A stretch of 64,000 nucleotides of DNA from Raillietiella orientalis (taxonomy: Eukaryota), in contig JAYWIR010000030.1 in NCBI GenBank assembly GCA_036172245.1, positions 1,798,001 through 1,862,000 on the forward strand, read 5' to 3'. Shown piece by piece: positions 8,901 through 64,000 of the stretch (position 1 is the stretch's first letter; each line of letters opens with the position of its first letter). The notes beneath the pieces are model-generated. The model saw nothing but the letters and a program-made list of their open reading frames with translations. It was not told where the DNA came from and searched no databases. The position numbers and the translations under genes are program-made.

Positions 8901-8989
8901 CCTTCCTTCGTCCGGACGGAGGACTCCGCCGAAGAGCAGCTATGCGCTACGCATCTCGCAGAGGTCGCCGAAGGGTGTCCTGTGTGTCT

Positions 8990-9660: not shown

Positions 9661-9699
9661 GAGCCGGATGAGGGAGCAGCTGCCGCTTCGTCCGCGCCT

Positions 9700-42360: not shown

Positions 42361-43999
42361 TGCTACCGCTCTGGATGCGGAACTTTGTGAAAAGTGATCT
42401 TCTCTACAGAGAGAAACTTCATTTGAGATTTCCTACTTCAGATGAAAGAAGACATATTAGAACCGAATGGAGCTCACGCAGGTTTCGACGTATTTATCAT
42501 TTGCAGAAGATCACTCTGTGCCATAAAAATGGATCGACATCCGTGTGTTTTTTGACTGGGTTCGACTATTTAGGCATCAGCAAATTTGCATTAGGGGAGC
42601 AATCAAGATACGAAGCTACCATTTTTAGAGGAAAGCCATGAGGCGTGTAGAATCAACCTAGAGACAAAAGCATAAGCATAAAGGCTTTGTAAGTAAAGGG
42701 AACTCGTGAAAAATGAATGCACTCATTTTATCCCACAGAAACGTAAGAACTGTTGAATACAACATGGAATGATAATATGTTGGTGCACATTAATATGTGG
42801 GAGTCGTAGGGAAGGGTCGTCGTTCTGCGAGAGTAATGGATGTCGGAGAAACACCAATTAAAGTGAACCTACTTTAATGAGAGGACCAAAACCCGTGAGA
42901 AATAATGAATCTGACTGGTACTTCGGCACAGTGAGCGGTAAGCGGAACCATCGAGCAGGTCGAGCATCCATCCGCGGCATGCCTCAGCATGGCCGACACG
43001 CACAGGGCCTGTGACACAGTGACAGCCCTCTTGCGGACGTCGACGAGGTAGACCCATCTCGGAAATCGAGTGCCAGGAAATCGTACGCAGGTGGCAGAAC
43101 AGCTTGCCTCTGGGAGGGTGACTTCTTCCCCCTTCATCACGATGGAGCGCAACCATTTTATTTATTCATTTATCCACACCTTTTACCACTGTAGCTCCGC
43201 CTAAGCGTATAGTGGAGCTGGGCGGTCGCAACGTCCCGTAGGGAGAGTTGATGTGGGGTCCAGTCCTTCGTTTCCTGTGAGTTTCTTTGCACATAAACGC
43301 CAGGAGGCAGCAGGATGAAAACATACGTTCCCTATGGCAGCCGATCTTTAATTCCTCAATCTCGCGTGAGAGGTAACTGGAAACACCAGGACAACAAGAC
43401 GCGACGGAGGAGACGGACTGTCATTTTACCACCACAACAACGAGGCTCACCGTATTCATTCACGAATCAATGTGATGCGAGCCTCACGGTTTCCAAGGAA
43501 CATCCCCATGCAGAACCGTCGCAACACACCGCTGCAACACTGCAGTGCAGTCTTCATACAGCATCGATGAGCAGTGTTCGCATTCCATGTCGGTGTACAG
43601 CATGTAGCATTTTCTCGGAGCTGCTCCATAGTACCCAGGTAATATTGATGCAATATTCATCCTCTTCCCCAATATCCCTATATTACCTCCCTCTGCAATG
43701 TCCTTCTTTCTATCCTCCAGCTCTCATCAAAAATCCTGAACCAGAACACCTGTCGTGGCCTATCTGGAGGTGCAAAAGCGAATCCACTTAGCGCGCCGAA
43801 AAAAGTGGAGGATAGAGAGAATTGGTTCCTACTCGAAAGTCGCTCTCCAGGACACTTATATATTCCTTTCGTCAATGAAGAAGCAGGAAATCCGCCCCCA
43901 CCTAAACTTCAAATTCAACAGGATGAGAGGGGATCCATCGCTTAGAGGACCCGCACGCTGCCAACGTGATGGCGGTAAGGGGTAAGAGAGAATGAATAA

Positions 44000-46431
44000 T
44001 CAAAGGTTATAAATAGGTAATAGGGTAAAGATCTCTGTCTGATCACGTCGCTTCTCCCGCAGCCAGTGCGCGATGCAGGCATCGCCCTTCTTCGCCTCTT
44101 GCTGCAGCGGGTGAGAACATCTGGTCACCCTCTTCGCTGTGCAGGGGCTTTTCGCCTTCGCAGGCTCGGCCCGACGCTCAGCGGGCGGTCGCCATCCTCT
44201 GGAGCAACACGGCGTGCCGCCGGGGCGTCCGCAGCAGGCAAAAGTCCGTCGAGAGCGAAACGCCGTCGCAGCAGCTCCTTGGGAGCGCCTTCGCAGACGG
44301 AACGGGACATTGCCGGTAGGCGTTGCCGACTGCTGCGGAGGACGGGGAGCAAGAGAGCAGGCGTTTCGGCTGCCGGCGAATCTGCGAGGGACTCCTGCGC
44401 TCGTCCAGGCACACGGGAACACAGGACTCACCAGCTCCACCGGTGGATTTGCACGGAAGTGGCGGGAGCTCCTCAAGGGCGCTGGGAGTCGCAGCTCAGC
44501 CTGCTGGACACTCGACAAGCCGTCTAGACTCGGCTACTCCTGAGAGTCAGCGGTGGGACGGGTGGTCCAGACCAGGCACGGAAGAAGCCGGACCATCCGC
44601 TTGACACTGGAGGAACCGTTGCAAGGCAAACACCTCCTTCCTTTCCCCGTCCATCGCTCCTGGAACGAGCGCTTGAGCTTTTCCTCGCATTGGTGTGTCA
44701 GTTGCGACCCTTGTCCTCCCCTCGCGCCGAATTCCCGAGCAGCGCCGCGTCTGGACCGTGACTTCCTCCTCGCTGGAAGAGGGGGCACTGCGTATGCTGA
44801 TCCCAGAGAGACGTATTCCATGGCGTGTGCTTAAGTACGAACATGCCTGCGAGGCTTGACACCTGCGTCGTACGTGCGACCCGGTACCCCGTCGTACGTG
44901 CGAACACAGTTCGGAAATCCTGTTGGTCAGTTCCGTTGCTCCCCTCCCCTCCCCTCGTATCTTCTCGAATAGACATGGCTTTCTTCCTCCGGGGATCCCG
45001 GAGGCGCTGCGGAGGCCCGCGAGCGGGTGAGGCGTTTCGACTGCCGGTAGATCTGCGAGGGGCGCTCGGGCGCTCATTCAGGGATGTCGGCGCTCGTTCA
45101 GAGGAAAATCCCAGTGCCAGAAGGAGAACGTCGCGCGCAACCACCCAAAGGGAAACACGGAGCCGTTCGGGTTCATGGGGGTGGTGGGGTGTGCTCTGAT
45201 GGACCGTTCGAAGGTGGGGGAGCTTCCGAGCCTCAGAGTGGTTGTCGTTCGAGGGTACTACGAGTTGCGGCATCGTCCAGCTGAGAAACAGTCTAAGAGT
45301 TTATTCGTCCGCGTTTCCCGAGGAATTATCATTTTTCCGGTGTTGAAGTGTAAGAGTGATATGGATCCATTTCTTCAGACTCTGAATGGTGAGTCTTCCG
45401 AAATGCCAGAATTGATGAACCCGAGAAAAGAGCACCCCGAGAAAGAGGAGGAAAGGTAGGTCGGAGGTGGGTAAAAGGGGAAAAGAATGGGTTACAAGTC
45501 TCCGGATGCCATCAAGACTCGTGAAGGAGTCCCCTTTGAATAGCACAAACGGAAAAGCACCTCAGGAGGAGGTCAGAAGCATTAAAGAGGGAACTTGTTG
45601 ATCCTCGTCCTAGATCAGGATTGTGGCAGGGAAGTTTCGGACCTCGGTTGAGGCGGAGCAGGAAAGAAGCGGTCACACGAAAGCTGATCAGTTGAGGACA
45701 TCAGAGCTAGAAGAGAGGGGAGGAACCTGAAAGTGCGAAGGTTGGTCGACAACGAGAACATCAGAGAATAATGTAGGATGCGGCGGAAAGAGGTGCTGTC
45801 ACCACCGCTGCAGTCGGAAATTCTCACAGATCTGAGGAGAGCTGAAAGATTCAAAATCTCCTGTGAGGCATTTCGCTCTCTCACCTCACTCCTCTCTTTG
45901 CTTCATGGAACCGAGCAGACTTGATCTTTGCAACGATACCTCCTCATTCCCTGGACACCGACCAGTCCCTTTGATGAAACGACGGAAGCTGCTAGCACTT
46001 CAACTCAGAGAGCGCTCTGGTTTCCTTTCTTTCTTTCAGAACGCCAACCCAGGCTCCAGGCTGCTTTGTGCGACTCCAACAAATCCAGCCACCTTGCGAA
46101 AATCGCATCCTTCGCTCCCTCAAGAGACTGGGTTCCTGCATCTTATTGAACGCGCGAAGATGCCGCTCGGCATATTCGTCCGCCAGCCTTCTTTCCGGTT
46201 TCTTTTTTTTAGTCCGCTGAGTGCTGAAGAACCGTTCTCCACCTTAGGGTTACACTCATAGAGAGCTTTTTGACACTATTCAAGCTACCCGAAAGTGAGT
46301 GTAACTCTTCAAGCTATAGGACACAACCCCGTAGGGACCACCCTATGGATCCAGGAAGGCTCCGTAGGAAGGAGTCCGTTCCGCTTACGCTTGGAAATGA
46401 GCCCCAAAGGATACCCCTGTCCTGGTTGTCT
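44000..46431 (+). mobile_element. L1/Tx1 EN-end, linker and RT fragment, interrupted at 46431 and resuming at 47588
   Basis: 'VSSRIDMAFF', 'EKQSKSLF', 'HRPVPLMKRRKLLALQLRER', and the family RT block GTGCTGAAGAACC at ~46221. Confidence 0.6.
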
Positions 46432-47061
46432 TCTATTTCCACCAGACAGACCGTGGCTTTTCTTAAAATTCAAAATAACCTCATACATTGTGGTGGGACA
46501 CGTGGTCCATCACGCTCCGCTTGTGCATGGACCTGCAGGGTCGCCGGTGCGCACACCGGCGGGGCTGACTGACAGCGAAGGGGGAGGGGAGAGAACAGAA
46601 AGTAAAAAGAGAAAGTAAATAAAACTCTTTGCGAGGATCAGGAAGAAATCACTGTTTGCTATGGGGAGTCTGCATCCTTTGCAGGATGTCAGCTAGGCAG
46701 TCCTAAGTCCAGTATTTCGTCCGAACAGGTTCCAAGTGGGGCCATCATCTCTAAGGGGGGTTCCAAGTGGCCGCAATCCGCTAAAAGTAATCTACGAACT
46801 GGACGGCGTCCCTCTCGCTTCTTCCTCTGTCGGCTTCGCTCCAGGCTGCCACAATCCTGTGGATGCAGCAAAGCGCTTCAGGGAGTGCGGCTGGCTGCAG
46901 TACGTCCCGCACAAAGTGGAGCTGTAAGAAGTCCCTAGGGGTGCCAACTGGAGTCCGTAAGGTCGTTCCGAAAGCTTCTCACAGGAACTGGAGGGCAAGA
47001 TATCCCACAAGCAGATGCGACAGGGATTCGCGTTCCCTGAATCTTCGACAGTCCGAGCTCA
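46387..47061 (+). repeat. 675-bp near-identical duplication, copy 1
   Basis: Matches 63270-63944 with two mismatches seen by eye. Identical ORF translations appear in the track. Confidence 0.97.
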
Positions 47062-47587
47062 CCCTCCGCAGCGTCCAGTGGTGCCGGCGTGCGTTGCAGA
47101 AAAGATTCCAGCAAAACAGTAAAAGTGCTGGCTGCTGCCCCTTCAAGGGGAGGTTGCTGCTGTTCTTGAGCACTGGGGATCACTGCAGTCTTGGCTAAAA
47201 ATACCGGGTAGCTCGCTTTAGCACTGTGGTCCTCGTGGAAGGGCACTCGGAGTCACTCAGTCATTTGCCGCCTTGCCGTTTGGCTGCTGCCAAGTGCCCT
47301 TCTCAGAAAAGGCATTGCTGCAGCGAGGAGGGTCCGCCCCACTCACGCGCTTACTCTTGGAATCTCAAGGATCTTCCGCAGTGAGCAGCGGATGCTGATG
47401 TCGAGTCGCAGGCAGTTCCTCTCTTCAGAGCTCAGCTCGTCGATCTTCGCCCACATGCTTACTGTTCTTTCTAGCCAGGCGCTAGAGTTGGTGGGGCAAC
47501 AGGCCATCCAGTCGTTCTCATTCGCTAAGGTGGCCATGCGTCCGAGGAGGAGACCGCATCTTCTCATCTTTCGGCCAGAGTACAAAA
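46432..47587 (-). mobile_element. 5'-truncated L1/Tx1 3' end nested inside the RT of another copy
   Basis: 'RCSLRKILE', 'CNARRHHWTL..SSDCRRFRERESLSHLLV', 'WPHL' and a 3' UTR hairpin. Flanked by GGTTGTCT and GGCTGTCT. Confidence 0.8.
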
Positions 47588-47930
47588 GGCTGTCTCCGAA
47601 GGGAACCTCTTCCTCATTATTTAAGGAGGAACCTCCCGGAAAGAATCAGCTCCTTGTTACTCCTTTGAAGAGAAGCTCTAAGGGATGCTTCCAGATTTCT
47701 ATGAAGGGCGCTCCCTGAAGGGAGCAGCGCACTTACATTCTGAAGAGTATCAATCAAAAAGCTCCATGGTATGCGATGGAGGGTCCCTCGATGGGTGGAC
47801 GGCTCCATCTTCAGAACTGGAGCAAACTCCTAAGGGGACTGACTTCTTGGTTACTGGAACGACCCTGGGGAGTCAGCTTCCAATCTCGGCCTCTCAATGG
47901 GGCATCCGATTCCTAGCTTTCACCAGTGCC
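47588..47930 (+). mobile_element. Continuation of the interrupted RT
   Basis: Colinear with 56600-57035 immediately after the CCTGGTTGTCT breakpoint. Confidence 0.65.
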
Positions 47931-48589
47931 TCATGTACAGTTCGCAAACGTGTATGCATACGTGGATTATACGCTGTACCGTCAGTAGTTACTGCATTAG
48001 AAAAAAGGAGGGAAAACTAAGAAGGATGCTGGGATCTTGTAATTTTCTTTCGTTCCGAGGACCACTTCGCGAGGATGCTGGCGAATCGAGCTCTGTGAGT
48101 CTATGCCTCACGTCATCTGGACCCAAGTTTTTTTCCTGTGACCCCGATTTTTCGACTCCCTTCTCGTCGTCGGCGAAACCTTATCAGGGAAGAGCCTTGT
48201 GGAGCCGAGATCTTCTGTCAGATCTGCATCGGACTTCCAGGAAAACGGGAGACCACTTTCCCTTGGTCTGGAGAACAAGGGTGGAATATTTCAGAAGCAT
48301 CTAGGATGTACATTTTGGTGCATGCCCATATATATGTACTCCATCCTGTCTACTTACACATGTATGTATAGGAAGCGCGCTCCATTCCTTCTTATTCATT
48401 CGTGGATGGTCATCTCTGAGAAGGGAGGAAGCTGTGATGCGCGCAACAGAGCACCAACTGCTCTTGAGAGGATTCCAAGGTCACCCGAGCAAGCAATCCG
48501 GACACTTCAGGGATTTCCAGGGTGTGAGCAGGCTGGACAAAGTCTCCTATGGTTCATGGGGGTGCAAAGGGTTTCATGCCAGCTCGCTT

Positions 48590-49550
48590 GCATGTGTGAA
48601 GCTCGTTGAGGAGGGTCAGAGGACCATTCAGAGAAAAGAACTTTTCGGATACCTCCAGGAAACGAGAGAGAGGAGCCGTCATCTTTGAAAGAATGGTCCT
48701 AGTGGCTTGCTCAGAGAAACGCGGTCTGAAGGAATGCGCTCGGGGTTTTGAAAAGGATCAAAAGGGAAAAAAAGCAGTTTGAAAAATATCATCCACACTC
48801 TATTTGGTTTCATGTAAATAGGTTTAGGGTGTCCTCTAGGTTCAGGAAGACCTTTACTGGACGCTCCCATCTGCTAGGAAGGGTACTGCAGTCCAACAGT
48901 AGCGGATGAGGAACAGGTTCCACCTTCCGCACTGGACGCAGTCCCTATACTTTGGATTGCACATTTCTAAAGTCTTCTTCGTCATTAGAGGAACTGGAAT
49001 TTTTCTGTAGCATGCCTACGGTCAAGACCCTTTCCATCGAGACATAGAAATGATGTCATAGATACTTCCCGAGAAGAAAAGTTCCACATTGAAGACACCT
49101 GAAGAACTCTAAGGGACTCATCAAGCCAACGCCTGTCTGAAAGGCTGACATCCTCGGCAGAGCTCCAGAAGCTGCCGCCACCTGCACCACGTGGCGTCAT
49201 CCAGGTGCTTGTGCGCAAAAGCAGCGTCGCACTCGATGCTGCCGAAAGACACGACGACCCCTGGAGCTGGCTTGAAGAAGAAAGCTTTGACGCATGCAGA
49301 CAGGCGCCATTCCACGGACCTGGCGGCCAACTGCAGGAAAGCGTGCACGCGGTTCCTCCGTCTCGAGGTGCTTCCGCCGCTCGTCGTCCGGAAGAAGAAG
49401 AGACAGTGGCCGAGTGCGGCAATGGAGCCGAAAGTGGCAGCTCCAAAGCGAGAAAATGCACTCGATGGTGGGGTGATCAGGCAATCATCTGCCAGCGAGA
49501 GGCGGAAGAAAACCTTGCTGGTACCTTGCACGGAGAATAGGAGCGGTGGT
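48590..49550 (+). mobile_element. pogo/CENP-B-like (HTH plus DDE_1) transposase remnant
   Basis: Psq-HTH-like 'CVKLVEEGQRTIQRKELFGYLQETRER', 'PSRHRNDVIDT..RLTSSAE' (P..I.N.DETG..TS.E-like), and 'SWLEEESF' (GW...E.F-like). Confidence 0.5.
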
Positions 49551-49675
49551 ACGTACCCGGAGATGAGCCACCATGGAGGCACGCTGCAACAAAAATGTCC
49601 TACCACATCAGTAGGCTTTCTGTGTAAAAAACCACGGTGACCAAATACATGAGATCACAGTGTTAACAGAAATCA

Positions 49676-49750
49676 CCTAACCTAACCTAACCTAACCTGC
49701 CTAAGCAGTTCCACCCTGCTCCTACCTAACTTAACCTAAACTGCCTAAGG
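49676..49750 (-). repeat. Short interstitial (TTAGG)n-type run
   Basis: (CCTAA)4CCT at 49676-49698 plus degenerate units to 49750. Confidence 0.75.
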
Positions 49751-51062
49751 TGACCTACCCCGAAAAGAAGGAAATTTCTAAGAAAGCCGGACTCACATCC
49801 AAAAGGCAAAACGCGCGCAAAAGGAAACTCTGGCAACAACGTGGATTTCATCTCGAGCTACAGGAAGTGAGGAAGTTTACAGTTTAAGAGCCTCCATAGC
49901 GGGAATGCAGCATCCGTCAGCGGTCGAGGCAGCAATCCAAATATAACTTACTCTTATAGGTTCAGATTGCTCACGCAGTGATCAGTATCAAGCCATGTCA
50001 CATGCTGTGGTATGCGTACCTGGTATAGTATTCTTGAATAAATGCATACAGCATAGTATTCTCAGATGCAATGTAGTATCTATACATAGCACCGCCATGG
50101 CATTAAGAACAGAACAGCATGGCTACATGGCGCTACGTACGCATTTCCTTCATACACAGATTGTTTCTTCCGAGAGGGAAGTGAACTGGGGTTCTGGAAC
50201 GTCAGTGGAAATGAGCGAGGAGGAGGTGTGAGCACGGAAAGCAGATCTTTAGCGGGCTACCAAAATATGGAGCAAAATATGGTACATTCAGAGGAGGAGC
50301 AAGAGAGAAGAAATGACAAGGGGTGGGGTTATTAGCTCTCGGAAGAAAGGAAACAGGTTATTACAGTACAGGATTCAGATGCATGCAAAGGGGAATCTTT
50401 CCTGATAGTCACGAGATGCGGAGAAAGAGAGAACAGTTTGTAAACAGTCACCCGGGAGATAGGATTCGTGTCAAAACAGGCGGCTGGGACTGACGTAACG
50501 GATGCTGTGGATCAAAGTCACCACTATGTCTTTCGATCCGGGGAATTCAATAGCCGATGGAATGTCTTGCGATTTACACGCAAAGGTCAGGGGGCTCAGT
50601 TCAGGGATGAACCACGTTTCCTTAGGGAGAGCCATCTTTCGGATGCCAAGTGCGGATAGAGCCAATCGAACTATCTGAGGTGGTTCAACCTGCAGGATGA
50701 ACCGCTGGCGAAGTAGCTGCACTCGTGCGGCTTGCATCCTTGCGCTCTAGAAAAAGTCCTGAAGATTTTTGAGAAGAGACGACTGCGTCTGCATTGGCGG
50801 GGCGTGCGAAAGACAGGAATAGACTAAAGACGCTGCCCGGGAACTCCGAAATTGCATCACTGGATCCCAGCCAGTCAAAGAATACTTTATTTAGAAGATG
50901 GGCCATGTCCTGTATGGATCAAGGAGGGTCCTCATGCCGCGCATGAGCAGAGAGCAGGTGCTCCAGTTTCCCTCGAAAAGCCACATCTGCCGCACTTTTC
51001 TGAGAACCTGCCGATCACTCCTACGCCTCGTTCAAAACCAACTGGTTTAGCTAGATGCGGGC

Positions 51063-51178
51063 GCACACACACATCTGTGTGTGTGTGCCTGTCTGAAACA
51101 ATACGTACAATCAATATATCCATTTCCTATCTATATCTATATCTATCTATCTATATATTTAGATAGATATGGATATAC
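51063..51178. repeat. (CA)n/(TG)n palindrome and (TATC)/(GATA) microsatellite
   Basis: GCACACACACA-TC-TGTGTGTGTGTGC, followed by CTATCTATATCTAT...AGATAGATA. Confidence 0.8.
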
Positions 51179-51340
51179 TGGCGGCCATCATCTTACACTG
51201 CTTTTTGGTAGTGGACGGGATGCTTGGAGGCCGGTTCATTCACAGGGCAGCAAACTCCTTCAGCAAACCACTCTTCCGGGAGAGCACGGAGAGTGAATCT
51301 TACTTTGCATCTATGTAGCGGACCTCCCGTAAAGGGGAAC

Positions 51341-51490
51341 AGTAGATCGATCCGGGAGGTACAGCAATACCGAGTCAACCCGCGACAGGACAGGAGCAAG
51401 CTCCAAGCATCATATCCACTTCCAAAAAGTGGTTTAATATACTAACCACCAAATGAGTGGCGTATCAGATATCAAGCTGATACGAGCGGA
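51341..51490 (-). ncRNA. U2: U2 snRNA 3' portion (approx. nt 39 to end), disrupted gene/pseudogene
   Basis: Reverse complement TCCGCTCGTATCAGCTTGATATCTGATACG..TATATTAAA..CTTTTTGG..GGAGCTTGCTCC..GGTATTGCTGTACCTCC matches U2 stems IIa to IV. The 5' ~38 nt, including the GUAGUA branch-recognition sequence, are missing. The Sm site reads ACUUUUUG. Confidence 0.93.
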
Positions 51491-52590
51491 TTTTATTATC
51501 ATTAAGAAAATGTAAATAAAATTCGAAGGGGATGACTCTCATCTGTTTACACACGAACTTTGGTATTTGTTAAAGAGTTCTTCAGTCTTCGTGTTCATGC
51601 AACTGCTGCCACAACTTTCCTCTTTGACGAGATATTCCCGCACTTCATCGTCCAGAGGATGACCGAGCCCATGCGTTCAATACACATCTCGGCTGTGATA
51701 CTGACACAGAAGACAACCGTCAGTTCTGTCATCATGATGGAATACAGCTTGGGGATCTCGAAAAACTCCATCATTTGGGGGATCTCATGCCCGCAAGAGA
51801 TCCTACAATGATAGCCTTCACTTGAAGACCTTTCTGAGCGAGGCGAGAGGCGTTTTCCTGGTATTTTTCCTCTTTCCTCTTCCTTGCATTGTCGAATGCT
51901 TCCTCCCCGTTCTCAAACAGACACGCAACGTCCACTAAAACCATTTTGTTGCCCTTGGATAAGATCGGGTCTGGACGAGGATTCGATTCCGTGCCGGGGT
52001 CACGTTGGTTGCTTGCAACCACCTTCCATCGCGCAGTAGAGGTGACCGCATTTCTGAGTTTCTTGGCACATGCATCGTGTGCATGGCCGTGTACATGGCC
52101 GAGTGCCTCATGCCATGATTTAGGATAAGAGGTGAGGTTTCGTCCCAAGCCACACAGCGACGACAAGAGCGGTCCGCTTCCCTGCTTCGTTGCACTCCTT
52201 AAATGGGTCGTATGCTGAGCCTTGCTGCACGTGTATCAATTGATAGTCGTCCTCCGATGTTAAGAAATAGTTTGATGTTTTGTGAAGTGCTTTTCCCGAA
52301 AGCAGGCGATTCCTTCCTCGCTCCCTACCCATTTGTCCCCATGATTAGAGTAACAGCAAAAGCAGCCTCTGGATCGTCCGAGTCATCGGGTTATTCACTT
52401 CCGTGCAGCAGTGCAACAGTCGATGGTCATCGGCAGCTGGCAGCCAGGACCAGTTGCGCAAGAACTCTAGTCGGATGCACAACTTTTGAAGGCTCTCTGG
52501 AACTGTCATGATTTCTGACGGGCTTCCATGTTTCCTCCGGAACAAGGACTTTCAATAATGCAGTTCTTGCGGAGCGTTATTTCGAGGAGA
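51491..52590 (-). mobile_element. 3' end of a Utopia-like (R2/NeSL group) RLE non-LTR retrotransposon
   Basis: 'HKTSNYFL..QLIH', CCHC-like 'CRRCVAWDETSPLILNHG..H', RLE 'RPDPIL..VLVDVACLFENGEEAFDNARKRKEEKY..IIVGSL', and 'AEMCIERMG' (R..Y.EH-like). A short 3' UTR ends TAATAAAA directly against U2. Confidence 0.88.
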
Positions 52591-52599
52591 TTTCAGGAT

Positions 52600-53950
52600 G
52601 GCAGCCCGGAAGCCAAATAACAAAAAAAAAGAAACGCACGGCTACGAATCATCTCCTGCATCAGAGTGCAGACAAGGCGATGCATTGAGCGTTTACGGAA
52701 CCTTTCAGGAAAAGCTTCAAGAACCCTCCTGGAAGGCAGGGAGGAAGACCCCGCATTTCCGTCCCGAGGGCTGCGAGACGCTGCCGCCCGACCGGTCGGA
52801 AAGGAGGAGCGGCGAGACATCGGTCTGGCGATGAAGCTCCAGAAGATGGTGACCTCCGGCTACTCTTCTGGCTGACAAGCGCGTCCCTCCCCCTGCTTTC
52901 GCCTTCCTCCGTCCCCAACGAGCGCCAGAGGCGACTCAGGAGCTAGTCGCAGAGCTCCTCCGGATGGGAATAGCCCCACTTCTGCCTGACGCAGGGCGTT
53001 TTCTGCCGCCGCCCCGCAGGTCGCCATGATGGAACGCCTCCCCCTCGCCCTTCTCTCCCCTTCCTTCGCCCTTCCCTCGTCGTGGGGAGTGCCCGAGTTG
53101 CCGAGTCAGGAGATTCGCACTGCCGCACGCCAAGTGCCCGGCGCGAATCGTTGGGCAGGGAAGAATCTCCAGAGAAGGGAAGTGCAGCGACGTTCGAACC
53201 AGCATTCGCCTCAAGAGATTTGAGAAATCCGGGACGTGGAGGAAACAGGGGCTTAAGCGCGGCGATTCTAGTGCTTCCGGGAGTGTCCTCGGAGGACGGA
53301 CTCTACTTTGGCACCTGCATGAGGCCAGGAACCTCCGACACATAGGGAGGGGCACCTCTTGTGACTCCTGTTTATCTAGCCATTCATCTCCTGTCCATTC
53401 ATGGAATGGGTGAGGTCCATGCTGCGCAGTGAGGCACGTCCGCCACGTCTTCGTGGTCTTCGTTGGGTTGATACGGAGGTGCCCACCCTACCCACCTCTA
53501 GGGAGGTGGCAAGAATTCCATTTTGTCACGAGTCGTGGGGAGGGTGTGGTACGACGACATGGTTGCGGAAAGCCATGGAGGGCATGAGGCAAGTGGGGAA
53601 GATGCTGTCCGTGTTGCCAGGGGGCCCGGGATCTTATTCAGATGCTTCTTTCCGTCTGATATGCTTTAGTGGCGTTTGCAGCGCGCCTCCCTGATAGGAG
53701 AACCTCTTTTTCTAAACTCCCCAAAAGAGAGCCCTTTCCGTTCCTATTCCTTCATGCCCATCGGAGACGCATCACTTTTCCTGGATCCCTGAACGTCGTC
53801 TTTTACGTGGCCCCACATTTGCAGAGCTTGCTCCGGTCCGAGTCCACACAGCAACCAGCCGCTCTGTCTTCGCTCACAGGCCTCGCATCTCGGGCCACGC
53901 TGTGGTCCCTCGATTTGACTCTTCCCCTAGGAGAGCATTCTGCAAACAGA
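52600..53950. mobile_element. Degenerate L1 fragments (RT on the minus strand, C-terminus on the plus strand)
   Basis: Minus strand 'LESPRLSPCF'; plus strand 'REVARIPFCHE..SYSDASF'. Confidence 0.3.
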
Positions 53951-54349
53951 GTGGGAAGGAACTTCCAAGAGGTCACTGCTGCTGCCTGAGATCAGCTCCT
54001 GCTCTTCGACGATGGCACCCCCTTTCCAACGCTCACTGAATGCGGGGAGGCGGCCCGGACGGCAACTAGTCTGTTCTCCGGTCCTGCGCATGTGTGCGTG
54101 ATTTCCCGTGCGGAGCAGCCTGTGGAAACGAAGTAACGCAGCAAAAGGAAAACGATCATGGACTTCATGCCTCAAGGGGACCAGGAGGAGGAGGAAGGAG
54201 GGAAATGGGAAAAGAAATAAGCAGACGTTCTGAAACAGGGATCTACAGCATCCCCACTGAAGAAACAAAAAAACTCCGTGAAAAACATCTCGTCTCTTCT
54301 TTCACTTTCTATCTGATTAGCTAAGCGAAGCTGACAGAAAACACAATGG

Positions 54350-54505
54350 ATCTATCTATCCATCATTGTTCCATCTATATCTATCCACCCACCTATGTAC
54401 CAGTGCATCCGTTTATCTACCCATTTACCAATCTATCGGTGTATCCATCTTTTGTGCATCTACCCACGTATGTGTCGCTCTCGGTTTTTGTATGTGTGTG
54501 TGTAC
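54350..54505. repeat. Degenerate (TATC/CATC) and (TG) simple repeats
   Basis: Direct inspection of the sequence. Confidence 0.7.
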
Positions 54506-55449
54506 AGTTCTATTCCAGATTCTGAGGAAGGGAGAGGAGGGAAGGAATTTACTTCCGTCGTACCCTTTTCGCCTCTCACTTGATCGATCATCTGGATCCG
54601 AATGCTGAGTTGCTCCGAAATGCCATATGATTTTCGCTTTGCCTCCTCTGAGAGAAGAGCACGAAAGAGTGCTGCGCTCCGAAGTTTCTCTGACGGTTCT
54701 GCCGCCGCTCGCCTGGCTCTCCACCTGGTTCTGGTTCCCAGAACCGAGCGACCCAAGGCCTCACGTTTCCTTCGCACCCGGGAGAGGATATTTTGATCTT
54801 ACCAGGATTTCCTTTCCGAGTCTCCTGCAGACCTCTCGAAGAATGGCCTCTGGACCATTGCTGGAGTTGAGTGCTTGCTTCGATTGTTCTTCTCAGTTTC
54901 CTTAAGTGTCTTTTAATGCACTCCGGTGATTTCGGATCGCTCTGTGCAATCACGGTAAGAACTCACTGAAGGAATTACCCTTCTTCTTGCTGGGAGGTTC
55001 GGTTTTATTCGCTGTTATTTTGCTTTTTTTTTGGCTTTCCGCTTTCAATGCAGGAGCAGGAAAAAAAGAATTCCATCCGGGAGACAAACATCACCCCCTA
55101 CCAAGGGGACTGTGATTTGTGATACGTTTCCAAGGAGACACTCACGGAAGGAGAGCTGCTGCTAGTGCACGTTCACTTGATTCCAGCTCAATCTCCAAGT
55201 AATGGCGGCCGACACGCAAACATCCAATGGGAATAATTGCCTATTGGCATCTGTGGTACAGATTAGAATCTGTGGTAATGGTAATGCATTCATTTACCGA
55301 ATGGCAAATGGGAATGATGATGGTGAGTTTTGACGGGAATCAGCCTCTCTGTCAGATAAGAACGAGATCGATGCAGAGCGGGAGGCCGCTACTGAGAGCA
55401 TCCGTGCGAACCCTATTCTTTTCTTGCATCTTTTTCCTCACCTCAGTGA

Positions 55450-56370
55450 CCTCCTTGACTAAAACCTTCGAATTTGTTTTCCTCTTTGCAGAAGATTCGT
55501 CTCCAACAAGCCAGAGAGCGAATATCGCGCCCAACGAGAACTTCTCACCGCAGGTGCCGCTCTGAACTCTGGGGTGGAGTTGCTGAGGGCTCCTTGCTTC
55601 ACTGCCGACCTTTGCAGATCGAGCGCCAACAGGCATTTCTCCCCCACGCCTTGTGGACGGCACACCTTGAGGGGCAAGCGGAGTTGCTCAGGCTCTTGTG
55701 CCGCTTAAGAGCCTCATCGAACCTTCTTCCTTCTAAGATGGAGTTTGGTTGCATTCTTGCTTTCCTCTCTGCGAAATTTTGGACTGTCGAAAAATCTTCT
55801 TGGACCGGTGATGCGCCGATCACAGTGCGGATCCTCAGGGAGCACTGCCATCAGCTCTACCGTGCTCTTACCGTCTTCTTCCATTTCCCCCTGGCAATGG
55901 ACAGAAATGACCACTTAGTCTACAGACTTAAAACTTTCGTGCGGCCGGAGGGCCTCAAGAGCATCGTGACGGACACCTGACACCTTAGCAGATTTGAGAG
56001 TCCTCTCTATCGAAGCTGCAGCTGCTGTTGCTGCTTCCCTTGCTGAATGGCAATGGATGAGGATAAGATCAAATCGATGCGGTGCGTGAAAGAGGGAATT
56101 TTTGGCTCAGTAGAGTTGACCAGCTAATCCTCCCGGGTCTCCTTCCTTTTCCTTGCACATAGCAGCAATCGCAAATCAGCTTTTTGTGCCTCGCAGAGTT
56201 CGCAGGGAATCTGCTTTTCGTCCACAGATCCGAGAGGAGGCTCGCCTCCGTGACTGGAACATGGAGTGCAGTCCACACGTGACCTGGACCGGGGGAGTTC
56301 GCTCCCGAGAAGACCCAACACAGCCAGGACGCCTACCGAACACTTTCGAAGAGATCGAGCCCAGATCTAT
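55450..56370 (-). mobile_element. Gypsy-like integrase remnant
   Basis: Zinc-binding-like 'KQIPCELCEAQK', 'STLLSQKFP' (VDYYS.FP-like), 'SNSSCSFDREDSQIC*GV' (DNG..F.S.EF-like) and a C-terminal 'SPQQLHPRVQSGTCGEK' (PRSY..G...RN-like). Confidence 0.45.
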
Positions 56371-56389
56371 CTGATCCACTCTTCGGGTT

Positions 56390-57296
56390 CTCTTTTGGTT
56401 GGTTGAGTGCCGAAGAACTGTCGTTCGCCTAAGGACTCACGAAACTCTTTGACACTGTCCACGCCACTCTCGAGGGTGCGTGCAGTAACTCTTCAAGTTA
56501 GGGGGTACTGGGAAGGAAAGGACCACCTTATGAACCCAGGAAGTCATCCAGAGAAAGGAGTCTGTTCTTCTCGCACCTGGAAGGGGACACACCCTCGCCC
56601 TGGTTGTCTCCGAAGGAAAACCGAGGGGAACCTTTTCCTCATTCTCTCCAGTGAAACCTCCAGGAGAAAATGCACTCCTCATTTCTACTCCAAAGGGAAT
56701 GCAAAAAGGATCCGCTCCTGGATTTCTTTTTCGGGAGAGAAGACTCAAGGGAATCGCTCCTTGCTCTGGAGAGAACACCGAAGGGACGCTTCCAAATTTG
56801 CTGGGAATGGTCGCTCCCGAAGAGAGCAGAGCGCTTCTTCACACTTTGGAGAGGTATGGATCCACCAGCTCCATGGTACTCGATGGAGAGGGGGGGGGGA
56901 ACGGAGGAAGACAACGGCTTCATTTGCACAACCAAAGGGGAACCCAGAAGGACTCCTTGATTCCTAAAAGGACCCTGGAGGGTCAGCTTTCAATCCCGGT
57001 CACTTTACGGGGTCATCCGATTTTCACCAGTGCCAACCAGCCTCATCTTGAGGAGGGCACTCGAAACCCACAGCGCGCCCCCGTTCTCGGCGTCGATCCT
57101 CCAAGCGGGGATTCGAACCCACAACGCTTTGGTACGACACGTGAGCAGACCGCAGGCACACGAGCCCTAGCGCGCGCCAGTCTCCGGAGGGAAGCTGCGC
57201 CACGCTGAGGATCCAGCAAGAAGACTTGGAGCAGTGGCGGAAGCCTCTGACGTCGAGCGAGCCGTTGGCGGTGGTTCGAACCACATGGGTGGAGAA
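56390..57296 (+). mobile_element. RT core fragment of the dominant family
   Basis: 'RVRAVTLQVRG', 'ESRALLHTLERYGSTSSMV' and 'PVLGVD'. Homologous to the blocks at 1440, 13300, 35120, 46200 and 60430. Confidence 0.7.
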
Positions 57297-58250
57297 GTTT
57301 TAACCCGTTCACGCCGGGAACGTTTATTTCGTTAAAAAAACAAAACAAAGCAAACTACAAGTTTTGGAGGAGACATATCCCCAGGAAAAAACGAGCAAAG
57401 CTATTTAAAAAAAGATCATCCCGGATGACCACCGGCACGCAGGCCGGCTTCCAAAAAGAAGGAAGGGAGGGAGGGAGCAATAAATAAATTTTAAAAAAAA
57501 AAAGGGAAGGGTGGCGACAGGGGTCTTGGGTATGTGACATTCCATCCTCTTTAAAAGCGGCCGTGGATGGTGGCGACCTGCATGGCGACTCCTTCTGGCA
57601 GGTGAGGCCACCTTGCTGCTGCCATGCTGGTGGCCTCTCTTCGCTGCAAACCTGACTCCAACACGTGAGAGCTGTCACGATGACGCGGATGCGACAGGTT
57701 GTTCCGATCACAGCTCCTTTCTCCAGTCCAACTTCGGTGAAGAAGCCCCGTAGCAGGTCGGTAGCAGTGTGCTGGCGTTGACGGAGTGCCGTGGCGAGTC
57801 TCCGCCACAACTCCTGCAAGTCACTGCACTTTAACAAGAGGTGCGGAAGCGATTCCATCGTCCCGTACCTAAGACAGTTTAGGGAGGCACCTCCCCTGGA
57901 AACCAGTTGTCGGAGCTGACTGCACTGAAATTTCCAGCGTGGGAACAGCAGAACATCCTGTTTCCAGCGTAGCGGGAACATGGAGGTATCCACGCAGAGG
58001 GAAGGGACCACGAGTTCTTCGGGGATCAAACCAAGAAGCTCGTTCCACCGGAGGAGTCCATTCGCCCGGAAACGAGGAAGCTTTCACAACTCGCTCGTCT
58101 TGCAGCCGTTCAGGAGTTTTTCGACTCCTGCAGTGTTTCAGGAGAACTCCCATCCTGCCGGTTGGCTGCTGTCATTGCTTGCCCTGAGAGCAGACAGCGC
58201 TGCAGCAAGGGGTGAGACAGCTAACCGAAACCGTTGCTATCAATGCTAAA
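57297..58250 (-). mobile_element. L1/Tx1 3' end, tail-to-tail with the preceding RT piece
   Basis: 'NCLRYGTMESLPHLLLKCSDLQELW', 'ARWPHLP..IHGRF*', hairpin at 57431-57448, and terminal AATAAACGTTCCCGGCG. Confidence 0.8.
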
Positions 58251-58449
58251 TGAGGTCTCCCAGTGGTTTGCGTAAGAGACCCTGCAACCGTCGCAGTACC
58301 TCTGGGTGCACTTCCAATGTGGAAGTCCACATGGGTGGTGAGAGAGGCAAAAGTGAGACCTTACTGCGTCCTTTCCTCCGTTGCTGCATCTTCTACTCGA
58401 CTGCTTATTTGGTACGCAACACTACTTTGCCCTTCGCTCATTGGATGCA

Positions 58450-59120
58450 AATGTGATGCCGGGAGCCCGGCAAATCCGGGATGCTCCACAGAAACGCCCT
58501 CCGGGGAAAGACTCTGTCCGCGCAGGATCGCTCGGGAGAACGGGATGGGGAGACTGGGACGAAGCGTTGGGGAGGTGCCGCACGGGCGAGAATGGAATTG
58601 ACCGCGTGCATGGGTGCGTGCTGCCTAAGTTCCATGCTTCCGGTTTATCGGGAGGTTTCAACCCAAAGAGATTCTCCAAGTCGCCGTTCCAGTAGCCGAA
58701 GTAGGGCCATTTGCTCAAGCTTCGTGGCCTCGGGTCGCCTTCCCGCTTTTTCCAAGGGCTTCCCCACTCATCATCGGGACCGGGAGAAGCTTTCCGCGAT
58801 GCACGCCTGGCCACGCAGCAGCGCATGGCCTCCGGGTGCCTACTGAGCAAGGCCGTCAGCTCGATTACCTTCAAGACGGATGATTCCGTCAGGAGCAGAA
58901 GGCCACGCGGGGAAGGCGCGGAAACTGCCCCTTGGCTTTTCGGACGCCTCCCTCGTGAGCGCTCGCGCCGCGCTCCCCGGAAAAGCATCCAGGATCTCGG
59001 ATTAACAAGTCCATCTCCCTTCGTGGCAGCCGGAAAGAGCGCGGAATCAATGTCGGAACGTCCTGCCCGAATTTCTCAGGCATGCGTGCTCTTAGCGCAC
59101 GGGAGGACTGCCCGAAATTC
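58450..59120 (-). mobile_element. L1/Tx1 C-terminal fragment
   Basis: 58734-58890 is homologous to 60146-60285. Confidence 0.5.
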
Positions 59121-59764
59121 ATAATCTCAGTGTATTAAACTTTCTTCTTTTTCGGGAAAAGAAATCGCCCTTCAATCAATCGCTCGTCCGAATACATAAA
59201 TAAGTCTTAATAATAAGGGAACAACACGAAGATGGACGGGAAGGCAAACTCCGCGTGTGCATGCGCACGTGAATGATTTTCTCACGCCAACTTTCCCAAT
59301 TAAGGATCCCTGCGAAGGAATTTTCAGGAATATGCAATCCTTTAAATGTCCCGCAGCCTGCATACATTGATGTAGTGTTCCCATTAACGCAATTAATGCA
59401 CATGGTGCGTTTCTTTAATGGAACACTGCCCAAATTGCGTTTTCGCTAATCTCGCAGCGATCGCGTGATCAGATGTGATGAAAGATTCTGGGCTGTCTTG
59501 CGGGAGGTAAACCTGCGGTAATTTCATTACGCCGTGGCAGCGGCAGCGCCCCGCACGCGTCCTGTCTGCCCTTCGCGGAGAAAAGAGCGGGTTCTTGGGG
59601 CGACGGCTCTTCGCCTCGAGGAGACGGGGCTGGTGGAAGCCTGCGGGCTGCCGGGGAGGAAGAAGCGGCGGGGATCAACTTCGTGCCCGGCACCATCGTC
59701 GAGCGAGGAGGCGGACGTTCCTGCCCGCGGAGAGGAAGGTTCCCTCTTTACCTCGGGTGCAAGT

Positions 59765-60420
59765 GGTTTATCGCACCATTGCGGCCAGAGCGTTTATTCA
59801 GGAAACCCGAACAAACCATCTGGGAACCAAGTTCCCAGGCAAAGGGAAAGGAAGTCCCCCTCCCCCTCTGAAAGCCCGGAACGGGAGGGAGGGGACCACA
59901 GATAGATATTAAACAATACAAAAAAGATATGAGAGAGGGAGAGGACAGGGGTCTTTGGCTTCGGCCGCTTCATCGTTTCAGACCGGCGTTGAATGCCGGA
60001 GATCTCCTTCCTCACTTTTTCCTTGGGATGAGGCCACCTGGCAGCCGCCCTCATGTTATCGTCGCGGCCTTTCAGATTATCTCTTGGGAGGTGTGGAGGT
60101 TCCAGTGACCGAGGTAGGGTCACCTGCTAGAGTCTTGTGACCCCTGGTCGCCTTCCCGATTTTCCAAGGGTTTCCTCACTCATCGCCGGGACCGAGAGCA
60201 GATTCCCACGATGCCTCGCGTGGTCACGTGGCATGTGGCCAGCAGCTCACCTTCGGCGCGCTTCAAGACGGACGATCCCGTCGGGTGCAGTGACTGCCTC
60301 GCAGGGACTCGAACCTACTGCTCTCTTGCTTTCTCACTCTCCGCATGCCCTCCTCTCCCGCCGCCGATATACTCATCCTCGTTTCCCAATCGCAGGGACG
60401 ACTAAGGATGCACCTGATGA
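59765..60420 (-). mobile_element. L1/Tx1 3' end
   Basis: 'AAARWPHPKEKVRKEISGIQRR'. The 3' UTR closely matches 28742-28950, with AATAAACG at 59791-59798. Confidence 0.75.
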
Positions 60421-60429
60421 TTCAAGTGC

Positions 60430-61060
60430 ATCTTTAGTCGCGCCGGAGGCCGTGTGGTTGCAGTTTCCACGCTTGGCACCAAGCGTCGCAGGTTCGAATC
60501 CCACCAGGAAGAATCAAAGCTGAGAAAATGGGTGAGTCGTGGGCTCGAGTTTCTCCTGTAAGATGACGCTGATCAGCCTACATTCACTCGGGTGTGGCAC
60601 TGGTGGGGGGTTCAAACCGGATGCCCCTAATGAGGGACGGGACAATGAGAATTAACCTTCGGGTTCTTCCAGGAATCGAGGAGTGGGAGTTCTCCTGCGG
60701 TTGTGAAGGAGCGGACCTCCCTTCGAGGGGGAGAACTCTCTGCGTCGTACCATGGAGTAGGTGTACCTTCACCTCTCCAGAGAGCGGAGGAGGAAGTGTG
60801 CCGCTTCCTTCGGGAGCGCCCTTCTAAGAAATTTCGGAAGCGTCCCTTCGGGGTTCTCTTTAGAGGAGTAAACAGGAGCGGTTCCTTCGGAGGAGAAGGA
60901 ATAAAGCGGCTTCCACCGACCGGGGATCCCTCTGGAGAGAGTAAGGAAGAAGTTCCCTTCGAGGTTCCCTGCCCATGAGTGAGAGTAACGGACTTCGGGC
61001 CCTTCCTGGATTCATAGGTATCCCATTTCTCCACGAGGTATCCCCTATCTTGAAAAAGAT
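60430..61060 (-). mobile_element. RT core fragment of the dominant family
   Basis: Reverse complement is colinear with 56530-57180. Confidence 0.65.
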
Positions 61061-61929
61061 CTAAGGAGGAACCCCTGAAGATTCAGAGATGTGAGATTCA
61101 ACTCCCCGAGCCAGAACACTTTCGGTCCTAGGAGCAGCAATGATGCTGATGACGGTAATGATGCGTTATACCTGTTTGTTCAGGCTGTCGGAAGCACTTG
61201 GTGAATGATTGGTGCGTGAAATGCATTCTAGGCGGGACGCCTCGCCTGCTGATGCGTTTGCATGAGGACGCGAGACTCGTCAGAAGCTTGTACCTGCTGG
61301 AACACTGGTCAGCACCTGCAATGTCGAAATGTCCACTTGTATCCGGTACCAGCAACACGCGTTCGGAAACATCTCCGTGAGCTCCGCCATCTGGTCGAGC
61401 TACTCGGAAGTCACCCTTTGACTTTGGGAAGGGTGCAGGCCGAAGCGCCAGAGTTAATATCTCAGGAAACGCTTGAGGAGTGCAAACCTACGTCTTCCGG
61501 TTAGACCTTAGGAATGCCCCGAATGGATGAAGAGCGCAACTACCATACATCCTGGGCCTCCGACCCTCCGTGAGAAGTGAGACGAAGCGGTTCATACTGG
61601 AAAGTGCAATAAAGAAGAAACTCAGGGGAATTACGGGAAGATTAAGATGCAGCTACTGAACTTCCCTTTCCATATTCGCTCCATGCAACTTTCTGGAAAT
61701 CATGATCACCTCCATAGGGAGTTCCCTGGGCTAATCCATCCTATCCTTAGGGTGGTTTATCTCACCTTCATTCATTTATTCATTCACTGGGTCCCTTTCT
61801 CTTCACCCTCCTTTTCCTCCCTCTAGTTTATATCCCTAGTCTGGTTCGGACCCTTTCGTTTCTCGAGCCAGAATATGACTAACCTTTTCCTATGGTGAAT
61901 TTGTATTCATTTATTTGAAATAAAAGACC

Positions 61930-62930
61930 TGGCTTGCCGGAATGAGAAGGTCAGCTCTCTTGCAGGACTTTAAGAGGTGAGTTTTGTAGGTCGGCAAAGA
62001 AAATCTTCGCTGGGATCGACAGAGGAGATCATAGAGTCTGTAGCTATCAAAGATATGCAGAGGGCACTCACACGCCATGCACTTGGAAGTTCTTGTAAGA
62101 GATCGCACATCTCGGGTCAAGTGCATGCACTCCCCTGGCGTCTTTATGCTATCGGGAGCGAATTTGAGAGATCCACATTGTTTCCGCCAATGGGCCCCTG
62201 TAAATAATCAGTGAATCATTATGGATCGCAGAAGGCAGTTGTTCAAGAAAGCATGCATGATCACGAGAAGATTCTAGATTAGTGTTCCAAAAGATACGGA
62301 AGCTCCCCGAATCCAAGATTCTTTTGCGATTCAGAGAGCACTGCAATCTGGGAATCCTCTTCTCTTTTGATCCAAATGAACAGATAAAGAGGGCAGCTCA
62401 TCACACCGGTGAGTTTGCCCGTAGATCATGTATTCCCAAGGATGGCTTCTCGCGCCAGTTTTTAATTTGATTTGTCTTCAGGGAGTCTTATTTCCCTTAT
62501 TGGTTGCCATTCAGATGTGAATACGATTGCGTACATGAGAGAATCGTTTTGGGTTTCTCCAGGAATCGGCCAATATTTGCGGGCGCAGTTGTTTGGAACG
62601 CTGGAGGTCTCTGCTTCGTGGTTCGGAAATCCTCAAGGTTGAAAGTGTCTAAACAAAGGGAGACGTTGATGGAAGAATAGGCTGCCCCCGAGTTGACGTG
62701 CCTTACGTGAGAAACGAACTCTGGGAATCAGACCGTGGGCGTGATGAAGCGCACCTAATTCAAAAGAGATAGAAAAGCGTTTGACTTGCAGCCTCCGGGT
62801 GCTTGAGAGAAGATCCAAAGGTCCCTTTTGTTCGTGCAAGATTACAAGGTACTTTTGTGAAGACGATTCCATTTCTCTCTGAGTCCCATTTGATTTCCTT
62901 GATTTTATCGTTCTGGCTGAAATTTGGCAC
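61930..62930 (-). mobile_element. Possible Tc1/mariner transposase remnant
   Basis: Weak colinear motifs 'AIVFTSE' (++F+DE-like), 'SWIRGASVSFGTL' and 'FAPD' (F.QD-like). Confidence 0.3.
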
Positions 62931-63059
62931 ATAGCTGACTGTCAGCAGTGGTCACCAAGGAGACAAGTCCAAATGCCTGCTAAACTGTAAAAAGCAACAA
63001 CCACCGCATTGGTTGGTGTCCCACCTTGAGCGCTGCTGGTTGTCCTCCCAACAACAGCT

Positions 63060-64000
63060 GCTATCCCTGCTTTCGCTTTTTTGCTTCCAGTTTTTTCTTC
63101 ATGGCTTCCTTGTTTTTTTCGGTTTTCCAAGTGCTGAAGAACCTCCTGCCTCCCTAGGAGAGGCTCACGAAGCTCTTCATCACTGTTTACTCTACTCGAT
63201 GGGGCGTGTAACTCTTCGAGTTATAGGGAATAACCCCAGAAGGACCAAACTATAAATACAGGTAGGCTCACGCTTGGAAATGAGCCCCAAAGGATACCCC
63301 TGTCCTGGTTGTCTTCTATTTCCACCAGAAAGACCGTGGCTTTTCTTAATATTCAAAATAACCTCATACATTGTGGTGGGACACGTGGTCCATCACGCTC
63401 CGCTTGTGCATGGACCTGCAGGGTCGCCGGTGCGCACACCGGCGGGGCTGACTGACAGCGAAGGGGGAGGGGAGAGAACAGAAAGTAAAAAGAGAAAGTA
63501 AATAAAACTCTTTGCGAGGATCAGGAAGAAATCACTGTTTGCTATGGGGAGTCTGCATCCTTTGCAGGATGTCAGCTAGGCAGTCCTAAGTCCAGTATTT
63601 CGTCCGAACAGGTTCCAAGTGGGGCCATCATCTCTAAGGGGGGTTCCAAGTGGCCGCAATCCGCTAAAAGTAATCTACGAACTGGACGGCGTCCCTCTCG
63701 CTTCTTCCTCTGTCGGCTTCGCTCCAGGCTGCCACAATCCTGTGGATGCAGCAAAGCGCTTCAGGGAGTGCGGCTGGCTGCAGTACGTCCCGCACAAAGT
63801 GGAGCTGTAAGAAGTCCCTAGGGGTGCCAACTGGAGTCCGTAAGGTCGTTCCGAAAGCTTCTCACAGGAACTGGAGGGCAAGATATCCCACAAGCAGATG
63901 CGACAGGGATTCGCGTTCCCTGAATCTTCGACAGTCCGAGCTCAGTGTCCAGTGGTTTCGGCTGCGTCGTAGAGAAGACCCCTAGACAGTTCTTGCCCAA
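63060..64000. mobile_element. Composite of a plus-strand RT block (to ~63314) and a minus-strand 3' end, with the same junction as 46431
   Basis: GTGCTGAAGAACC block at 63131, followed by the duplicated junction and a minus-strand zf/3' UTR. Confidence 0.75.
63270..63944 (+). repeat. 675-bp near-identical duplication, copy 2
   Basis: Matches 46387-47061 at an offset of 16,883 bp. Confidence 0.97.

Follow-up and report, generated by a model that had tools for sequence, protein, structure and literature searches.

Utopia retrotransposons encode a restriction-like endonuclease (RLE) and are followed downstream by U2 small nuclear RNA (snRNA) sequence that starts at nucleotide (nt) 39 (Kojima and Jurka, 2015; PMC4640811). 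In the survey sections of that paper, U2 is the 3' flank in 44 of 65 Utopia families and the 5' flank in only 11, and Phytophthora insertions are described without the 5' 38 nt of U2 upstream. Its S1 Fig shows the ends of Acanthamoeba and Phytophthora elements abutting TCTGTTCT without poly(A). Low copy number and decayed copies are likewise described, and a tandem insertion is noted for Utopia-1_NVit (PMC4640811). As presented there, the group is broad, its support is weak (a bootstrap of 60% together with NeSL and YURE), and some of its families are weakly specific. The hosts named are Amoebozoa, oomycetes, arthropods, nematodes, reptiles and echinoderms (PMC4640811), to which other accounts add more oomycetes (PMC5348765) and sponges (PMC13580325). 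Among target-specific non-LTR lineages, Utopia has been claimed to have the widest distribution, and any further host with a junction at nt 38/39 puts the claim of an ancient origin to the test.

Several other systems bear on the same question. Keno, an APE-type element, is reported to have reached the identical U2 site in parallel with Utopia and has the same 3' flank (PMC4640811). NeSL-1, YURE and R5-LIN have as targets, variously, spliced-leader genes, U2-derived satellites, and rRNA or tRNA genes, and a Ulp1-like protease is known from nematode NeSL and from Utopia-1_TSP, according to the same source (PMC4640811). For the endonuclease itself, the cleavage motifs given for R2Bm are RH, PD, D/E, K..KY and RG.W (PMC4838377). 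Here we describe a locus in a 64-kb stretch of DNA (the window, meaning the whole stretch analysed) in which the decayed end of an RLE-encoding element meets U2 sequence at this position.

A U2 fragment that starts at nucleotide 39

Scanning the whole window against Rfam at gathering thresholds returned a U2 match (RF00004) at 51337-51521 on the minus strand, with 86.2 bits and an E-value of 1.2e-15. In the printed alignment, true U2 similarity of high posterior probability is limited to model positions ~39-192. Because the first ~30 aligned bases are A/T-rich, non-U2 sequence that forms no stem I and is forced onto the model with seven model positions deleted, the U2 part is 51337-51490 and begins with the U of UCUGUUCU at model nt 39. 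Across the junction the minus strand reads ..CTTAATGATAATAAAA (51506-51491), then TCCGCTCGTATCAGC.. from 51490 downwards, or, at greater length, TCCGCTCGTATCAGCTTGATATCTGATA... There is no long poly(A) at the element end, and the final A could equally be U2 nt 38. Element and U2 share one orientation, with the RLE lying ~300 nt upstream of the junction.

At its 3' side the U2 piece is complete to model position 192, the normal end, and neither an A-run nor a second junction follows 51337. Three of its first eight bases differ from an otherwise near-universal sequence, a difference in which decay and host variation are indistinguishable, and its stem-loop sequences differ from the Rfam consensus. 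The stretch TCCGCTCG of the U2 part may reflect either host variation or decay. An Rfam search of 44000-64000 in E-value mode recovered the same single U2 and no second one. The 64 kb contain no intact U2 gene and no U2 array. A search for a 20-nt motif from the 5' part of U2, allowing up to three mismatches, drew no match in the window, and the copy has no recognised 5' junction with U2 and no target-site duplication. The 5' 38 nt of U2 comprise its branch-site and U6-pairing sequences. As these are missing, the piece is a dead copy of U2.

Homology of the endonuclease frame

Adjoining the U2 part is a 154-residue frame that runs from stop to stop at 51774-52235 on the minus strand. It contains no Pfam family, and a word-index search found no longer relatives, which exhaustive phmmer did find. 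The phmmer search, against 1.84 billion representatives (a library with roughly 15 billion proteins behind it), gave 185 matches at E ≤ 1e-3 and 11 at E ≤ 1e-10. The best ordinary matches are P0002 (7.2e-14) through P0005; the top score, that of P0001 (1.7e-45), is due to four tandem copies of the matched RLE segment. Identity to the nearest relatives in the database does not exceed 49% over ~80-100 residues, and there is thus no close family member in the roughly 15 billion proteins. No relatives were present in viral and prokaryote-genome collections. Closest in the Atlas are unnamed clusters of RLE fragments, dominated by arthropods, to which the name 'PO24 protein' was given automatically.

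The long relatives place this frame at the end of a reverse transcriptase (RT) protein: 24 of the 25 long phmmer matches scanned have RVT_1 upstream of the matched part, the exception being P0001. One of them, P0103, has a Ulp1-type protease besides RVT_1, and none of the 25 has RNase H. P0001, a predicted database protein of 1107 residues, lacks an RT and contains four exact tandem repeats of a ~122-residue RLE segment; either a gene model that runs across 5'-truncated element copies in tandem or an assembly error may account for it. Another match, P0010 (E = 4.2e-11, in six stretches), was set aside as a repetitive non-RT protein that is probably a spurious hit.

Structural homologues were found through a profile (A1) built from 23 short relatives including the window frame. 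Searched against the PDB, A1 matched R2Tg 9dou_A (2.8e-16), 9nl3_A (6.1e-16), 9nl2_A (2.4e-14) and R2Bm 8gh6_A (5.7e-6), in every case within the C-terminal RLE of the R2 protein. The single frame reached R2 structures at an E-value of 0.57 only (9nl2_A).

Anatomy and decay of the element

A second profile, made from the last 480 residues of 20 phmmer matches, was run over all 2373 six-frame pieces of the window. Only two pieces were significant, an RLE core and, upstream of it in another frame, the remnant of a CCHC zinc knuckle. A further CCHC-like piece downstream of U2, at 50935-51126 on the minus strand, scored an E-value of 0.17 among the 2373, which is chance level. The features of the locus are listed below.

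Table. Features of the U2-joined element, in order along the forward strand
Feature	Position	Strand	Basis
U2 snRNA gene, 3' part, model ~39-192, starting TCCGCTCGTATCAG	51337..51490	-	Rfam RF00004, 86.2 bits, E 1.2e-15, and sequence
Presumed element 3' UTR, ~165 nt, A/T-rich, ending ..AATGATAATAAAA	51491..51655	-	position between last protein-similar piece and junction; carries no similarity statistics of its own
Decayed ORF C-terminal tail, out of frame with RLE core	51656..51791	-	last ~15 residues of three relatives, collinear; not significant alone
PD-(D/E)XK restriction-like endonuclease core	51792..52085	-	profile positions 324-422, E 2.8e-28 over whole window
CCHC zinc knuckle remnant, upstream of RLE, other frame	52064..52195	-	profile positions 288-331, E 1.9e-7 over whole window
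Possible linker remains upstream of CCHC, and approximate 5' truncation point	52196..52315	-	weak collinear tblastn pieces
Stretch added by the first-pass annotation, membership in element unsupported	52316..52590		no profile or relative match

The RLE core keeps the RPD, the second D (VDV), FEN and K..KY motifs, and the R of its RH motif is replaced (AHD). In the CCHC remnant CRRC is kept, and the His and last Cys ligands are replaced (CRRC..ET..LNHG; ..ETSPLILNHG..). A frameshift near 52064-52090 separates the CCHC remnant from the RLE core. The core frame ends in a stop at 51771-51773, the very point at which relatives go on to G.W and a further ~50 residues. Beyond it, a tail motif at 51656-51706, in a third frame, matches the ends of P0093 (1063-1075), P0012 (814-826) and P0116 (1154-1169). 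Since the last ~15 residues of these three relatives fall there, the ORF probably ended near 51650, which would give a 3' UTR of ~160 nt. Altogether the copy has suffered at least two frameshifts and one stop, and has lost two zinc ligands and the R of RH.

Upstream of the CCHC remnant, tblastn with individual relatives gave collinear pieces that may be remains of a linker: P0093 865-911 at 52284-52174 (within a summed E-value of 1.5e-13), P0081 746-817 at 52267-52061 (E = 0.001) and P0121 802-834 at 52314-52231 (E = 6.6). Significant similarity to the element thus spans 51792-52195, with weak collinear pieces reaching ~52284-52315 on one side and the C-terminal tail motif on the other. Between 52316 and 52590 neither the profile nor any of 18 relatives matches significantly or collinearly, and there is no Pfam family. 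Positions 52350-52551 are identical to a lone 202-nt contig of X1, the one public DNA run sharing 5% of sampled window words (no RNA run is listed), an identity that is uninformative on the nature of the stretch. Because likeness to the element stops at 52284-52315 and tblastn is blank outside 51756-52267, we conclude that the copy is the 5'-truncated 3' end of an element, ~0.8 kb long and consisting of linker remnant, CCHC, RLE and 3' UTR. The N-terminal zinc fingers are absent from the copy, which is truncated near 52315, and the window contains no second copy.

These results bear out the core of the first-pass annotation, which had proposed a decayed RLE/CCHC element whose 3' end abuts U2 on the minus strand: the profile E-values (2.8e-28 and 1.9e-7) identify the RLE and CCHC remnants and the Rfam score (86.2 bits) the U2 part, the Infernal-type check with the U2 model puts the true match from nt 39, the frameshifts, stop and lost zinc and RH residues document the decay, and the resumption of U2 at nt 39 is that of the canonical Utopia target as published (PMC4640811). 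The extent that had been assigned, 51341..52590, needs correction at both ends, with U2 bounded at 51337-51490 and element likeness ending near 52315. Nor was the U2 gene, as had been suggested, split: its 5' part is absent from the window, and the gene is truncated. For annotation, the U2 match is best labelled a truncated pseudogene and the 154-residue ORF transposon debris rather than a gene.

Surroundings of the locus

Neither RVT_1, nor an endonuclease, nor any other Pfam family scored above threshold in 638 ORFs of the window (127 + 148 + 63 + 150 + 150, besides a first scan of eight ORFs in the region). The cut-offs were ≥60 residues in 1-44000, ≥80 residues in 44000-64000 and 40-79 residues in 52300-58600; two ORFs, 43740-43982 (plus) and 43945-44124 (minus), were left out. 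The only rows, both below threshold, were zf-ANAPC11 (E = 0.12) and DUF3772 (16.1 bits, cutoff 25). When 30 long RT-RLE proteins served as queries, tblastn matched the window only within 51756-52267. The suggestion that L1 debris had displaced the 5' part of the element and of U2 therefore finds no support, there being no RT, endonuclease or other Pfam family in the 638 ORFs and no RT-RLE similarity outside that interval. No intra-window repeats were detected in 50000-56000.

Other observations concern the window at large. It has no tRNA genes and one trivial tandem repeat. On the same strand as the U2 fragment and 15 kb from it lies a U6 snRNA-like gene (35884-35990, minus; Rfam 63.4 bits) with a T-run at its end. 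In place of ACAGAGA this gene has ACAGAGG, and several positions of the conserved stretch that follows depart from the Rfam consensus; the gene could be either a divergent U6 or a pseudogene. Both strands contain very long stop-free frames (554 residues at 661-2322; 431 residues at 21401-22693; overlapping frames in the 64% G+C region 8000-12000), and the 431-residue frame has no homologue. The DNA of the window (about 53% G+C) has few stop codons but no visible sign of coding. Taken with the lack of Pfam families in ORFs of ≥60 residues and the divergent U2 stem-loops, this gives a bare impression of a protist host, perhaps a coccidian-like one. Self-comparison of the window revealed an old dispersed repeat family, unrelated to the element, with copies 68-75% identical at 56442-57034, 35173-35294, 47643-47930, 1760-1929 and 60747-60885. 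About 160 nt past the 3' end of the U2 fragment, 51060-51180 is an imperfect palindromic microsatellite (CA/TG runs, then TATC/GATA-type repeats). A miRNA-model match there, at 24.8 bits against a gathering threshold of 84, is surely spurious.

Metagenomic relatives with and without U2 flanks

Scanning metagenome contigs with a six-sequence alignment (A2) gave 19 loci that encode relatives. Just one of the 19, L010, was U2-positive by Rfam at E ≤ 0.01 (75.3 bits, with U2 cut by the contig end). It consists of the end of an intact RLE ORF, a 136-nt UTR and then U2 from nt 39, ..AAATCTAA|TCTGTTCTTATCAG... A motif scan added a second, L004, in which a 1070-residue RT-RLE ORF and a ~420-nt UTR are followed by an exact 18-nt U2 piece from nt 39 and then by unrelated sequence. 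The short U2 piece of L004 resembles a fragment noted for one Utopia-1_PS copy in the published account (PMC4640811). When 3' flanks were aligned locally to the U2 start of L010, the observed score was reached in 0 of 300 shuffles for L010 and 1 of 300 for L004. The junctions of the window, L010 and L004 align base for base, and the element ends of L010 and L004 are likewise A/T-rich. Of the 15 relatives for which the 3' flank exceeds 200 nt, 13 have no U2-like flank; in the other four loci the flank is too short for a verdict.

The 3' UTR ends of the window (51491-51530, minus) and of L004 (4300-4335) have in common a 12-13-nt stretch, ACATTTTCT(T)AAT, ~10-20 nt before the junction; it could be an A/T-rich chance or a conserved 3' recognition element. 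Eight other loci, all from one metagenome (L002, L006, L008, L009, L012, L014, L015 and L016), form an RT-RLE family with a common 3' end, ..GAAAGTGCTGAAAATAAA.., followed by a short A-run and varied flanks. Four of the flanks of this family share a short similar motif, hinting at another preferred target, and alignment with shuffle controls brought out no likeness to U2 in the family. The 3' flanks of the Ga0194135 family had looked U2-like by eye, a likeness that was unsupported in local alignment to the L010 U2 with 300 shuffles. The RLE relatives of the window copy clearly include elements with other or weak targets.

We also placed the window among its relatives with a FastTree phylogeny (LG+gamma) of 137 sequences (the window, 126 phmmer matches and 10 loci) over the 99 profile columns covered by the window ORF; rows that did not span profile positions 340-398 or had ≥30 gaps were excluded. 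In this weak tree P0012, P0016, P0009, P0006 and others form a group with the window (SH-like support 0.73-0.85), itself part of a wider, poorly supported group (0.47) of 56 members that includes L001, L002, L007, L008, L009 and L016, which are not U2-linked. L010 and L004 fall in another clade of 35 members together with P0103. The clustering of the RLE, on which the first-pass annotation had let its Utopia assignment depend in part, puts the window apart from the two U2-linked loci. Because the tree has 99 columns and low deep support (0.0-0.86), it cannot separate clades; it is no evidence for a separate clade, nor does it support the assignment hoped for.

Origin of the junction

The most probable reading, to which we give a probability of about 80%, is that the locus is the fossil of one insertion by a U2-site-specific, RLE-type non-LTR retrotransposon with Utopia-type behaviour. 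To the anatomy, homology and exact junction observed here, a mechanism and an order of events can be fitted by analogy with the R2 and Utopia literature. The bottom strand of a U2 gene would have been nicked by the endonuclease of the element, between nt 38 and nt 39, and the 3' end so released would have served as primer for copying the element RNA into DNA (target-primed reverse transcription). The outcome would be a precise 3' junction, in which the element tail is followed by U2 from nt 39 to its end. The remainder of the element may never have been copied (5' truncation) or may have been deleted later, and U2 nt 1-38 would have been lost along with it, a loss also described for Utopia insertions in oomycetes. 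Element and U2 gene are both dead today, the former with a frameshifted ORF, lost zinc ligands and RH arginine and no RT, the latter without its functional 5' end. One copy of the family, in the 64-kb window, was examined, and from a single copy target specificity is not inferable for the family as a whole.

The copy likely belongs to the Utopia clade, which is defined by RT phylogeny and target, the copy itself having no RT. An RLE element from outside that clade, elsewhere in the R2/NeSL/HERO-like radiation, could instead have evolved the same U2 site independently. The parallel arrival of Keno and Utopia at this site is a precedent for such convergence (PMC4640811), the tree does not join the window to the U2-linked L010 and L004, and the nearest Atlas clusters are the unnamed arthropod-dominated fragments. 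We nevertheless regard an independent origin as unlikely: a tree of 99 columns and low deep support has no power to separate clades, the published Utopia is itself broad, weakly supported and inclusive of weakly specific families (PMC4640811), and the relatives include P0103 with its NeSL/Utopia-type Ulp1 protease.

Two further explanations concern how the element end and U2 came to be neighbours. That the U2 piece was carried rather than targeted, with 3'-flank read-through, recombination or segmental duplication bringing element end and U2 together to a U2-less locus, would suit the lack of an intact U2, U2 array or U2 5' part in 64 kb and of a recognisable junction on the 5' side of the copy. 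It is made improbable by a U2 piece that extends to model position 192 with neither A-tail nor second junction after it, and by the lack of repeat or duplication boundaries around 50000-56000; moreover, oomycete insertions too lack the 5' U2, an absence that is therefore expected in situ (PMC4640811). Because only 11 of the 65 families described have a 5' U2 flank, its absence does not disqualify a single copy (PMC4640811). Very improbable, in our judgement, is a chance meeting of an unrelated 5'-truncated U2 pseudogene with an unrelated RLE fragment. Both parts are indeed decayed and single-copy in the window, but they lie on the same strand in direct abutment, the break is at the nt 38/39 used by Utopia and Keno, and the same join recurs in L010 and L004.

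The site-specific insertion favoured here makes the copy a real but ordinary genomic fossil of a known kind of event. In itself it is of little importance, a textbook-style trace of a site-specific retrotransposon that disabled one U2 gene copy; L010 and L004 add the same junction in further unsampled organisms. Conceivably, though we doubt it, an uncatalogued Utopia lineage has left its last trace here, in a group of eukaryotes not yet reported to contain Utopia. Were this so, the known range (Amoebozoa, oomycetes, and animals including sponges) would be widened and more weight given to U2 targeting that dates to early eukaryotes.

Comparison with known systems

LINE-mediated snRNA retropseudogenes start at nt 1, are often 3'-truncated, and carry an A-tail and/or a target-site duplication. 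The window U2 starts at nt 39, runs to its normal 3' end and has no A-run after 51337, and such an origin was rejected. Template-switch chimaeras of the L1/U6 type have a complete snRNA 5' of the LINE piece; the layout in the window is the reverse, and they too were rejected.

Among elements that target U2, Keno has the same 3' flanking U2 and uses an apurinic/apyrimidinic-like endonuclease (PMC4640811), whereas the window element has a PD-(D/E)XK RLE, and Pfam scans found no member of the APE or endonuclease/exonuclease/phosphatase family in the flanks. The NeSL clade (NeSL-1, YURE, R5-LIN) is linked to the window element through the Ulp1-like protease of relative P0103. Unlike the targets described for these elements (PMC4640811), the window flank is a genuine U2 3' part.

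R2, which is specific for 28S rDNA, has a homologous CCHC-RLE C-terminus with PD..D..K..KY (structures 9dou, 9nl2-4, 8gh6, 8ibw) and shares with the window element a presumed mechanism of target-primed reverse transcription. Unlike R2, the window element is joined to U2 and not to 28S, the Rfam gathering scan of the window giving U2 and U6 and no rRNA match, and its ORF matches R2 at an E-value of 0.57 as against 7e-14 for unnamed RT-RLE proteins.

The closest correspondence is with Utopia. The window copy differs from a full Utopia element in having no RT and no N-terminal fingers, and from oomycete Utopia in that no RNase H occurs in its 25 scanned long relatives. It has the RLE after a CCHC finger at the C-terminus, both as decayed remnants, it has no long poly(A), and the 5' part of U2 is missing as in the oomycete copies described (PMC4640811). 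Like the elements figured in that account, it is joined to U2 at nt 39 (TCTGTTCT..), at the same base, in the same orientation and with the same kind of tail (PMC4640811).
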